A model generated the notes under the pieces. The model worked only from the letters and a program-made list of their open reading frames with translations, was not told the DNA's origin and searched no databases. From Eledone cirrhosa (lineage: Eukaryota), in contig OZ024743.1 in NCBI GenBank assembly GCA_964016885.1, positions 255,130,001-255,194,000 of the forward strand: DNA of 64,000 nt, given 5' to 3'. Of this stretch, positions 6,246 to 13,295 are shown piece after piece. A program made the translations under genes and the position numbers. Position 1 is the stretch's first letter. The number at the start of each line of letters is the position of its first letter.

Positions 6246-6441
6246 GTTTATATATGTACATATGTATATCTATATGTCTATATATGTATGTATATATATA
6301 TATATGTATATATATATATACATATATACACACACACATATATATATATATATATATATATATATATATATATATATATATGAAAGACGTAAAATAAGAA
6401 AATTTTAAAAATTAAAAATTAACTTACTTACTAAAATTTTC

Positions 6442-6523
6442 ACTCCTACTAATTAGTTTCTGTAAGGGAATAAATATAGTTACGCAATACAACTATAGAG
6501 ACGTCCTTACGTCATCAGGGAGT
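6442..6523 (-). ncRNA. Type I hammerhead ribozyme F1
   Basis: Minus strand: ACTCC-CTGATGA-cGTAAGG...CCTTACa-GAAAC-TAATTA-GTA-GGAGT. Confidence 0.85.
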
Positions 6524-7306
6524 CTATTCTCAGCTAAGTTCCTAGGCAATGCTCGGACACTAGGAACCCATATAAAATAATAATTCAGTGGATGGAATAA
6601 AGCTAGCGGGGACTAAGTTCCAGGGCACTGAAAAAATTCACTGCATACTTGGTCAGTGGCAAATTCTAAAGAATCAATCACGTGACACTGAGGTTAATCA
6701 GTGAGGAGTGGGGTGGTATTATGACAAGAGCCTCTCTACTACCATGAACCATAGCAGTAAATTTTGGCAAGTTTCGCTCAACAAATAATTTGGAGATAGA
6801 TATAGAGTATTAGTATATCTACCAACAGATGTATACAGATGTATACCCATGTCTGCAAATATATATGTTATGTCTTAGTATGCAGAGAGGTGCAGAACAA
6901 TTATATGAAAGACGTAAAATAAGAAAATTTTAAAAATTAAAAATTAACTTACTTACAAAAATTATATATATTTGCTAGCATGGGTAACATCTGTATACAT
7001 ATGTTGGTAGATATACTAATTATCTATATTTATCTCCAAATTATTTGTTGAGCGAAACTTGCCAACATTTACTGCTATGGTTCATGGTAGTAGATAGGCT
7101 CTTGTCATAATACCACCCCACCCCTCACTGATTAACCTCAGTGTCACGTGATTGATTCTTTAGAATTTGCCACTGACCAAGTAGGCAGTGAATTTTTTCA
7201 GTGCCCTGGAATTTAGTCCCCGCTAGCTTTATTCCATCCACTGAATTATTATTTTATATGGGTTCCTAGTGTCCGCGCATTGCCTAGGAACTTAGCTGAG
7301 AATAGA

Positions 7307-7388
7307 TTTCCCTGATGACGTAAGGACTACTCTATAGTTGTATTGCGTAACTATATTTATTCCCTTACAGAAACTAATTAGTAGGAGT
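7307..7388 (+). ncRNA. Type I hammerhead ribozyme F1
   Basis: TTTCC-CTGATGA-cGTAAGG...CCTTACa-GAAAC-TAATTA-GTA-GGAGT. Confidence 0.8.
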
Positions 7389-7799
7389 GAAAATTTTAGT
7401 AAGTTAATTTTTAATTTTTAAAATGTTCTTATTTTACGTCTTTCATATAATTGTTCTGCACCCCCTGCATAGAACCACAAAGGTACTAAGACATACATAT
7501 ATATTTGCTAGCATGGGTATACATATGTTGGTAGATATACTAATTCTCTCTCTATATATATACATATATATATGTTTGTATAAATATATGTGTGTATATG
7601 TATATATATATATATATATGTATATATGTATATATATGGATGTATATGTATATATATATATATATGTATGTATATATATGTACATATGTATATCTATATG
7701 TATATGTATGTATATGTATATATATATATATATATGTATGTATATATATGTACATATGTATATCTATATGTATATATATGTATATATGTATATATATAG

Positions 7800-10581: not shown

Positions 10582-10978
10582 CTAGGGCGGGTAAAATTCC
10601 CGAGATCCATAGACGAGTTCTCTCCAGCGGTCTCTGTCTTTCATTATTGCTGCCATCTCTTGCTGCGTCTCCAACAGACCACAGTCTGTCCTTAGGGTAT
10701 CAACATACGTTAACCTTGGTCTTCCTCTTCCAGTGTATCCATGTAGGGGCTCCCACAGGAGCACTGAGTGCAATGTCAACTCTGGATACCGGTGAGCATG
10801 TCCAGCTAAACTCAGTCTCCTCTGTGTCATTTTTGAGTTGACTTTTGGGAGGCTCCCATACAGCTCTGAGTTTTTCATCCTCAGTGTATACTCATTAATG
10901 TTCAGAGCCATCCAGCAGCATTCTCGCGTAGCACCCATCCATCATCTGAGTGAGTTTCTTTGTCAGTATCCAAGTCTC
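10582..10978 (-). mobile_element. 3' fragment of an RTE-group LINE (second family)
   Basis: [38 protein letters not shown]; related fragment at 13586-13755. Confidence 0.8.
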
Positions 10979-11171
10979 ACATGTATATATATATATATAT
11001 ATATATATATATATGTGTGTGTGTGTGTATATATATATATATATATATATATATATATATCATCATCATCATCTCATCATCTTCATTTAACATGCTTTTC
11101 CACGCTAGCATGGGTTAGACGGCTATATATATGTATATATATATATATATGTATATATGTATATATATATG

Positions 11172-12590
11172 TATCATCATCATTATCATCATCATTTAAC
11201 GTCTGCTTTTCCCTGCTTGCAAGGGTTGGATGGGCCTTATTCAGCACAGCATCTCTACATTCGTCACATTCCTTCGTCATCTCCACCGTGAGCTTCAATG
11301 ATCTGAGGTCTGCTCTCATCACCTCCGCCCAGGTTTTTCGTGGTCTACCTCTACCATGTCTTCCTTCAACTGGCATTTCCTGGCACTTCTTCACCCATCG
11401 GTCATCCTCCATGCGCATCACATGTCCATACCACCTCAGTCTCCTCTCCCGTACACTACATTCTATCCCTCTCAGACACAGTTTCTCTCTCAACACATTT
11501 ATGCTGGGTCGTTCACGCACATTTACACTGCACATCCAACGGAGCATGCTTGCCTCATTTCTCTCCAGCCATTGCATATCCTCTGCAGTTGCTGCCCATG
11601 TCTCACTACCATGCAGCATCGTGATCCTCAGACACGCATCATACAACCGGCTTTTCGTACGCAGGGAGAAACCCTTCTTCGTCAACAGAGGAAGCAGCTC
11701 CCTAAACGTCTTCCAACCCATCCTTATTCTAGATACTATGGCCTCGAAACACCCTCCTCCCATGCTAATCAGATCTCCTAGGTACCGGAAGCTATCCACC
11801 ACTTCTATAGCACCCGCCTGCATTTGAAAAATGTGTCTATCAATGCGACTTCTACTGTCTAATTTCCCTGTACAACTACTGCATACATATTTCTCCCTAC
11901 CTGTTAGTTTGCCTGCTATCCCGCTACATCTCTTGTGTACCCAGGATCTGCATTGTGTGCATTTTATAGAATTTATGCCTGTTCCTTTTCTGCATATCGA
12001 ATATCGCCATTTCCCTGACGGAATCAGAGTTTTGTCCTCTTTTCTACTCATCAACACTTTTGTCTTAGCTAGGTTCACTCTCAGTCCTCTTGCTTCCAAC
12101 TGCTGTTTCCATAGCCAGAATTTATTCTCTAGCTCCTCTACTGATTCTGCTATAAGAACCAGATCGTCAGCATAGAGAAGTTCCCAAGGACAGCCAGTCT
12201 TAAACTCCTCTGTTATGGCTTGGAATACTATAATGAACAAGAGCGAGCTGAGGACATAACCTTGATGTACTCCTACTTGTATCTGGAATTCCTCACTAAA
12301 CTCCATTCCTACCCTGACTTTACTGAGACTACCTCTGTACAAAGTTTGCACTGTCCTCACAAGCCATTCCTCAACACCTAGCTTCCTTAGGGACCACCAG
12401 ATGACCTATCTAGGTCAACAAAGGCTAAGTATAGTGGCTTATTTTTCTCTAAGAACCTCTCTTGCAATTGTCTCACCAAGAAGAGGGCATCTATTGTACT
12501 CTTCCCAGGTACAAAACCAAACTGCATCTCATCTAGTTTGACCCTTTCTCTAATTAGTTGTGCTAATATCCTTTCTGCCACTTTCATAAC
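11172..12590 (-). mobile_element. RTE LINE, decayed
   Basis: ORFs 12387-12587 and 11083-12360 with QFGFVPG, LYADDL, CxxCxxWVHKRC and WYGHVMR; (GAT)n tail. Confidence 0.92.
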
Positions 12591-12768
12591 ATATACAGTA
12601 TATATATATCATCATCATCATCATTTCATGTCACGTCTGCTTTTTCCCTGCTTGCAAGATTTATAATATATATATATATATATATATATATATATATATA
12701 TATATATATATATATATATATATATATATATATATATATATATATATATATATATATATTATAAATCC

Positions 12769-13295
12769 TCTTATTTTACGTCTTTCATATAATTGTTCTG
12801 CATCCTCCTGCATTGAACCACCTAGGTACTATGACATAACTTATGTATTTGCTAGCATTAGTGTACATCTGTACGCATATGTTGGGAGATATACTAAGTC
12901 TATATATTTATCTCCAAATTATTTATTTGTTGAGCAAACCTGCCAGATCCACTACTAATTCATTGGTGTGGTAGTAGGCTTTTGTCATCTTACCAACCCA
13001 CTCCTTCCGACTAGCCTCAGTGTCACTTGATTGATTCTTTAGAATCTGCCATTTGACCAGAGACAGCGAACTTTTTCAGTGCATGGAATTTTTTACATGA
13101 GTCCCTAGTCTCCGCGCATTGCCTGGAGACTTAGCTGAGAATAGACTCCCTGATGACGTAATGAATTCTCGATCGTTACATTATGTAACTATCTTTATCC
13201 CATTACAGAAACTAATTAGTTGGAGTGAAAATTTTAGTAAGTAAGTTAATTTTTAATTTTTTTTTTAAATTTTCTTACTTTACGTCTTTCATATA
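12769..13295 (+). mobile_element. Single 504-nt terminally redundant HHR unit (family F1)
   Basis: Begins at 12769 and ends from 13273 with the same TCTTA(T/C)TTTACGTCTTTCATATA; between (TA)n tracts; homologous to 6965-7550. Confidence 0.85.
13145..13226 (+). ncRNA. Type I hammerhead ribozyme F1 (diverged copy)
   Basis: ACTCC-CTGATGA-cGTAATG...CATTACa-GAAAC-TAATTA-GTT-GGAGT. Confidence 0.85.

Follow-up and report, generated by a model that had tools for sequence, protein, structure and literature searches.

Animal retrozymes without long terminal repeats (LTRs), which carry hammerhead ribozymes (HHRs), form an already known class for which a dependence on Penelope-like elements (PLEs) was put forward in 2020; a 2026 preprint takes up the argument and treats them as non-autonomous PLE derivatives (bioRxiv 10.64898/2026.07.22.740005). 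PLE insertions are described as having a partial tandem structure, a 5'-truncated arm in inverted orientation, a tail at one of the two ends and a bias towards (TA)n (PMC8557442), and the tail lies between two internal start sites of the reverse transcriptase (RT) (PMC11167929). What the HHR contributes to PLE mobility is called unclear by the former, and the latter found the HHR dispensable in vitro; passages of a further paper (PMC13282606) mention neither hammerhead nor ribozyme. We analysed a window, that is, the whole stretch of 64,000 nt at positions 255,130,001 to 255,194,000 of contig OZ024743.1 of Eledone cirrhosa, within a genome of 3.0 Gb that was searched as well. The subject is a repeat unit of ~540 nt that contains an HHR and no open reading frame (ORF). 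Our literature search found neither this retrozyme family nor a mapping of 5' ends at a retrozyme HHR, while the supplements of the preprint may list related families.

We propose that the unit is, very probably, a non-autonomous PLE of the animal non-LTR retrozyme type, an ORF-less and HHR-bearing repeat present in thousands of copies and likely copied in trans by a Neptune-type protein with RT and GIY-YIG endonuclease. The size of the family is apparent from exact genome-wide matches: 8,658 to a 25-nt motif at the 3' side of the HHR, 1,505 to one element end followed by TA and 249 to a second end followed by CT, with 0 matches for each reversed control. The 103 full units recovered measure 520-558 nt, mostly 530-545 nt, have a GC content of 0.35-0.36 and fall into three large and four small subfamilies that are 10-29% apart. 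No ORF of note is present, the longest ATG-initiated one reaching 66 aa in trimers of the 7 subfamily consensuses, and the ORFs of the window that touch the copies lie mostly in TA repeats. Each arm in the window holds one HHR, and consecutive HHR-bearing units were seen only elsewhere in the genome, as at locus L201, where three same-strand HHRs lie 571 and 556 nt apart. The term retrozyme, used in a preliminary description made from the window alone, is supported by a covarying HHR, by tandem HHR units and by the lack of an ORF. Other tandem HHR units, with periods of ~459, 483-511 and 466 nt (L092, L100 and L109), apparently belong to further retrozyme families.

The case for PLE-type mobility comes from the anatomy of the insertions. 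Positions are counted here from the predicted HHR cut, +1 being the base after the cut, which is the G of GGAGTG. We examined 247 loci, 5 of these being duplicates or overlaps: 57 best matches (60 minus 3 repeats), 90 loci anchored at the +70 end, 40 at the HHR and 60 at the +182 end, the anchored sets being early listed places on two contigs (C1 and C2) and not random draws. The 3' ends are fixed at +70 and at ~+182 and run into (TA)n, while the 5' ends vary. Among the +70-anchored loci (89 after removal of one duplicate), 59 have an adjacent inverted arm, which ends at ~+182 in 53 cases and is odd or off-locus in 6; conversely, 48 of the 60 +182-anchored loci have an inverted arm, ending at +70 in 43. 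Most arms of the 40 HHR-anchored loci likewise end at one of the two sites, with a few odd ends. In all 57 clearly assignable arm pairs both arms belong to one subfamily. TA or CT-TA repeats follow the tail ends of the +70-anchored set and most of the HHR-anchored ends, neither set having been selected for this feature. Partial tandems reach ~2.7 units, and the arms of at least one unit (25/89 and 15/53) wrap back into the unit. The same arm-pair layout, with ends at +82 and +148, is found in family A, an autonomous PLE of this genome that encodes RVT_1 and GIY-YIG domains and which we take to be of Neptune type by its CxxxxCxxC linker. Family A (L091, L339-L398) has 2,886 and 6,302 exact end matches, and its HHR carries a U3-A8 core variant. 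CT repeats are a separate peculiarity of the +182 end (e.g. window 7540-7553), where 36 of 75 end calls carry 4-27 of them as against 0 of 82 internal copies; they could reflect stuttering at priming or later microsatellite growth.

This anatomy accounts for the copies of the window, which the preliminary description had counted as three. The three stretches exist, although they represent only two insertions: the first (A, 6377..6962, minus strand) adjoins the second (B, 6964..7549, plus strand) head-to-head at a 5'-5' junction at 6959..6966, so that the two are arms of one insertion, while the third (C, 12763..13295, plus strand) is a separate, non-inverted insertion of another subfamily. Arms A and B are 95% identical and have minor alleles such as GUA in common. 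Arm A comprises 1.09 units, from a 5' end at ~+10 to the fixed 3' end at +70 (GTCTTTCATATA), which runs into (TA)n; arm B extends from ~+120 to the fixed end at +182 (CTAATTCTCT), followed by CT and TA repeats; and copy C extends from ~+42 to +70, with (TA)n on both sides. The target flank at 6245..6380 is rich in (TA)n, with similar flanks at 7550-7800, 12660-12760 and 13296-13317. Between the two fixed 3' ends lies a PLE-type tail (+71 to +182), which in arm B occupies 7450..7549 on the plus strand and forms two hairpins; the long one is partly deleted there. Repeat periods of 525, 533 and 504 nt had been reported, and the motif does recur at 6377/6902, 6964/7497 and 12780/13284. A unit of ~504-533 nt, taken from these periods, is valid for the window and too short for the family, since deletions (~14 nt in A, ~38 nt in C) shorten the window periods. 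The different circular register ascribed to B proved to be a real difference of start, caused by variable 5' truncation together with the second fixed 3' end, and is thus no evidence of a circle. The idea that permuted copies longer than one unit are the trace of a circle or multimer is not supported, for the same reason: the distribution of genomic start points, proposed as a check, reveals no random permutation but fixed 3' ends and variable 5' truncation.

One HHR per copy had been recognised correctly. These HHRs lie at 6441..6523 (minus strand, core CUGAUGA at 6518-6512) in A, at 7307..7389 (plus strand, core at 7312-7318, GAAA at 7370) in B and at 13145..13227 (plus strand) in C, with predicted cuts after 6447 (GUA), 7383 (GUA) and 13221 (GUU), respectively. 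The fold is of type I, with stem I (ACUCC/GGAGU), the core CUGAUGA, a C and an A that face each other unpaired, a 6-bp stem II that holds an internal loop and an inner hairpin, then GAAA, the palindromic CUAAUUAG and GUU or GUA. In arm B, accordingly, the C.A opposition stands at the base of the 6-bp stem II with its inner hairpin, loop III is palindromic and stem I contains GGAGU. Rfam searches at the gathering threshold and at E<=10 returned no HHR match, only microsatellite and hairpin noise, and the HHR is a variant with a long stem II. Stem II reads GTAAGG/CCTTAC in two copies and GTAATG/CATTAC in copy C, and these sequences and the inner hairpins are as first described. At the scale of the family, 236 HHR copies from 184 loci (alignment A3) have the core CUGAUGA in 221 cases and a fully paired stem II in 210. 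Five stem II haplotypes dominate (65, 58, 38, 36 and 4 copies), and one pair takes all four Watson-Crick forms (U-A, A-U, C-G and G-C). Within 18 rows, picked for diversity and hence related rather than random, double changes occur at 9 of 21 pairs, and the covariation score is 0.33 as against 0.13 for shuffled (0/500) and <=0.12 for slid alignments, a score that is not a probability because the rows are related. The compensatory changes across five haplotypes indicate selection on the HHR fold, in agreement with the earlier statement. Further compensatory pairs are seen in the long tail hairpin, whose alignment held one mis-specified row (L140), and circular folding of three consensuses (25 shuffles each) gave z values of -4.8 to -9.7 for the sense strand and -1.5 to -3.0 for the antisense strand.

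As for the mechanism, it can be hypothesised that the endonuclease of a PLE would cleave a (TA)n tract on both strands and that each cut end would prime complementary DNA (cDNA) at one of two internal RNA sites; both sites are AUAUA-like and hence able to pair with the target. Synthesis of the two cDNAs would end at varying positions, after which microhomology would unite them head-to-head or, alternatively, one cDNA would be joined to the target end on the far side. A monomer seems to be the source from which tandem units are rebuilt, either by way of a circle or through repeated template jumps. This last proposition is based on a comparison of tandem units within an arm, which differ by 2.9% (430/14,867 sites, leaving out one chimeric array), with the two arms of one insertion, which also differ by 2.9% (363/12,322 sites), different insertions being 4.4-8.9% apart. 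No strongly recurrent difference between first and second units was found in tandem arms. Moreover, 10 locus-private alleles are common to tandem units, and 99 are private to one unit; by our arithmetic, ~0.1 shared ones would be expected from parallel mutation, and 3 of the 10 lie in thinly sampled subfamilies. Since tandem divergence equals that of sister arms and private alleles are shared, the data favour a monomer as the origin of the multimers, whether through a circle or through template jumps, and the circle as the route has, in our estimate, slightly less than an even chance. A switch of subfamily exactly at the HHR cut was considered and set aside: the one clear chimeric array (L008), of 2.6 units at 645-2066 of its locus, has upstream units of an intermediate subfamily and a last unit of subfamily 3, with too loose a breakpoint; the 8 further arms that were flagged resemble intermediate subfamilies or the edges of alignments.

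Two rival explanations of the template can be set out. In the first, an abundant monomeric circle made by the HHR would be the template and be reverse transcribed for more than one round, the HHR cut setting the 5' end of the RNA in vivo; we hold it tentatively, as a serious candidate with the balance tilted somewhat against it. Arms of up to ~2.7 units, the low divergence of tandem units and their shared private alleles are consistent with it, as are the circles shown for coral, mussel and axolotl retrozymes (PMC7229834). The distribution of 5' ends also speaks for it, the interval +1..+20 holding 36 of 142 ends in a first set (8.7 expected), in which the interval was picked after the data were seen, and 15 of 100 in a second set fetched afterwards (6.0 expected, p ~0.001), from which two duplicates and one 20-nt arm are left out. 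The 94% AT stretch at +21..+55 is not enriched (20/242, 25 expected). Against the circle, fixed 3' ends with variable 5' ends need none, the peak lies at +7/+8 (18/242), on the palindrome AAAATTTT, rather than at +1 (8/242 at -3..+3), and the tail arms of the second set alone are not significant (6/60, p 0.076) and show a second excess in an AT-rich region at +395-420 (8/60, p 0.0016). About 23% of the arms reaching +20 stop by -3 (49/212), and ~77% of those reaching the cut read through it. In addition, the HHR is dispensable in vitro for the PLE in PMC11167929, where RNA-seq ends at the cut were not found.

The autonomous family A served as a control for these ends. By our count, 25 of 60 anchored arms, some loci contributing two arms of one insertion, end at -57..-75, upstream of the HHR; a CACGTG motif precedes this point by ~270 nt. 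Only 5 of 60 end at +1..+20. The peak at -57..-75 is probably a transcription start. The 5' pile-up of the retrozyme family lies, in turn, ~245 nt downstream of the conserved GTCACGTG, and the ends of family A, which pile up ~70 nt upstream of its cut, imply that transcription start would explain the retrozyme pile-up as well. In view of this control the pile-up does not prove that the HHR cleaves; the candidate causes are cleavage, a transcription start, and RT stalling or microhomology. The second explanation builds on this control: a promoter in each unit would start RNA at ~+6, uncleaved multimers transcribed from genomic arrays would be the template and the HHR would be marginal. It is compatible with both pile-ups and with the read-through of most arms past the cut, and we consider it plausible while inclining against it. 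Such a scheme would make arrays shorter from one generation to the next; tandem units, however, look identical when inserted and have private alleles in common, and the compensatory changes of stem II imply selection on the HHR fold. A candidate promoter motif, GTCACGTGATT (7143..7153, plus strand, in arm B), which resembles an E-box promoter motif, is shared by the consensuses of all 7 subfamilies and gives a hairpin as well; its other sites are 6676-6686 (minus strand) in A and 13022-13032, mutated, in C. The fullest version of the circular explanation, in which the copies would record in vivo HHR cleavage and rolling-circle copying, has the PLE RT prime at two fixed sites on an HHR-made circle of 540 nt or a cleaved monomer, run off at the cut in about one fifth of passes and otherwise go round again, rebuilding tandems. 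We judge this version rather unlikely as a whole.

A third explanation, named at the outset as the one that could overturn the retrozyme assignment, is that the unit is merely the pseudo-LTR or 3' untranslated region (UTR) of an ORF-bearing PLE and the copies its truncations. The ends are indeed fixed in the manner of PLEs, whereas the unit is not attached to an ORF. Among the 247 loci it joins PLE sequence in one arm only, a single-copy chimera (L128/L336, contig C1, about 56,515,830-56,517,460), from which we conclude that the unit must be more than a coding element's pseudo-LTR. The chimera consists of (TA)27, a truncated endonuclease end and 3' UTR resembling family A, the unit from +350 to +70 and (TA)18; the family-A-like part lacks its own HHR and ends and is joined to the unit by a few bases of microhomology. 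Searches by tblastn with six PLE proteins matched neighbouring insertions only, L128 excepted; together with blastn queries taken from upstream of 42 5' ends that were free or gapped, they yielded L128 as the one contiguous PLE case, and no second copy of its junction was found among 40 scored candidates. It is possible that L128 arose by a template switch within one insertion, in which case family A would be indicated as the partner, or else by a deletion that occurred later between two neighbours. Long arms, exceeding one unit, run back into the unit and the PLE loci compared show no homologous sequence, so the explanation as a pseudo-LTR is, despite the PLE-type ends and the Neptune-A endonuclease tail and 3' UTR in L128, largely refuted and very improbable. 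Spread as satellite or minisatellite DNA by DNA-level recombination, for which partial tandem arrays and a few segmental duplicates among the loci might speak, is scarcely credible given the dispersed copies, the fixed 3' ends at (TA)n, the 5' truncation and the strand-specific RNA folding and covariation.

The reading of the unit as an HHR-bearing, non-autonomous PLE also has to be weighed against several adverse points. The isolated HHR regions of the window copies are no more stable in folding than shuffles (z +0.2 to -1.8), and in the fold of lowest energy the core is caught in CUG/CAG pairing. The C.A opposition beside the core and the triplet GUU, found in 216 of the 236 HHR copies, are non-canonical, so that cleavage may be poor, and 8 of 9 retrozyme dimers assayed did not cleave in the preprint (bioRxiv 10.64898/2026.07.22.740005). 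Gene conversion, duplication at the locus or small source arrays that escaped sampling could also account for the shared private alleles. Neither blastn nor nhmmer revealed an autonomous PLE with a homologous pseudo-LTR in 50 GIY-YIG loci, fetched after scoring the best 150 of 10,596 candidates, plus 30 family-C loci, the matches in these 80 loci being independent insertions of the unit itself, and nothing beyond the L128 chimera names a partner. A likeness of the 3' end to the Neptune families C and D was rejected, as it did not exceed shuffles (728 and 835 of 2000). The same unpaired opposition is present in the HHRs of the autonomous families C and D of this genome. The HHR of the unit probably works weakly and as a dimer, given its palindromic loop III and GUU triplet. 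The segment CCCACTCC at ~+272 (window 7117-7124 and 12997-13004), kept in most subfamilies and complementary to GGAGUG at +1, competes with stem I in folds of the whole unit, a possible off-switch.

Other features of the window lie outside the unit. Broken fragments of a RT of the long interspersed nuclear element (LINE) type lie between the copies at 7869-9967 (plus strand) and 11083-12587 (minus strand), unrelated to the unit and presumably RTE-like; the RT ORFs there, at 7869-9173 and 11083-12360 (RVT_1), are mere neighbours of the copies. Head-to-head 3' ends of the autonomous Neptune-type family D, as at L094, occupy 16030-16350, with HHRs at 16114 (minus strand) and 16199 (plus strand). 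An inverted pair of another HHR-like motif with a TA-rich loop III, also present in L094, is located at 44077 (minus strand) and 44318 (plus strand), and HHR-like motifs of other repeat families at 38437 and 42646 (both minus strand), the type at 42646 forming inverted pairs in L099.

It can be asked how the family relates to the systems described so far, as far as the accessible parts of the cited sources extend. Animal non-LTR retrozymes (PMC7229834; bioRxiv 10.64898/2026.07.22.740005) likewise consist of tandem units that lack an ORF and contain a type I HHR with palindromic loop III; they have 35% GC, reach thousands of copies and co-occur with Neptune-type PLEs. Their typical unit measures ~300 nt (51-972 in the preprint) as compared with ~540 nt in Eledone, where most copies are truncated arms of 0.1-2.7 units instead of long arrays and the HHR has a long stem II with an inner hairpin and the C.A opposition. 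In contrast to the coral, mussel and axolotl retrozymes with circles shown, the Eledone family is known here from genomic copies alone, and whereas the preprint argues by co-occurrence and pseudo-LTR phylogeny, the present case is made by explicit insertion anatomy, a homologous pseudo-LTR not having been found. Endonuclease-positive (EN+) Neptune-type PLEs (PMC8557442; PMC11167929; family A, L091) have in common with it the partial tandems, the 5' truncation, the inverted 5' arm, the tail at one end, the (TA)n target and a sense HHR upstream of the 3' ends; the retrozyme family differs in lacking an RT/GIY-YIG ORF and in its tail of 112 nt, as against 30-40 nt in print for EN+ PLEs and 66 nt in family A, and its 5' ends are concentrated directly downstream of the HHR cut, whereas those of family A cluster upstream. 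The non-autonomous Chlamys elements such as MRC1 (PMC8557442) are also non-coding dependants of PLEs that have pseudo-LTRs and form head-to-tail multimers. Their 3' ends are generally similar to those of their autonomous partners, and canonical HHRs are missing from most Chlamys; the retrozyme family carries an HHR, and its 3' similarity to the families compared is not significant. If the rolling-circle reading were true, the hammerhead of PLEs would have a demonstrated role, and Neptune family A would be identified through the L128 chimera as the partner enzyme. What the family adds to these known systems is a retrozyme that bears the full PLE signature of two ends, inverted arm and (TA)n beside an autonomous control in the same genome, and the thousands of copies with mappable 5' ends, the two priming sites and a candidate partner protein make the question of the role of the HHR testable.

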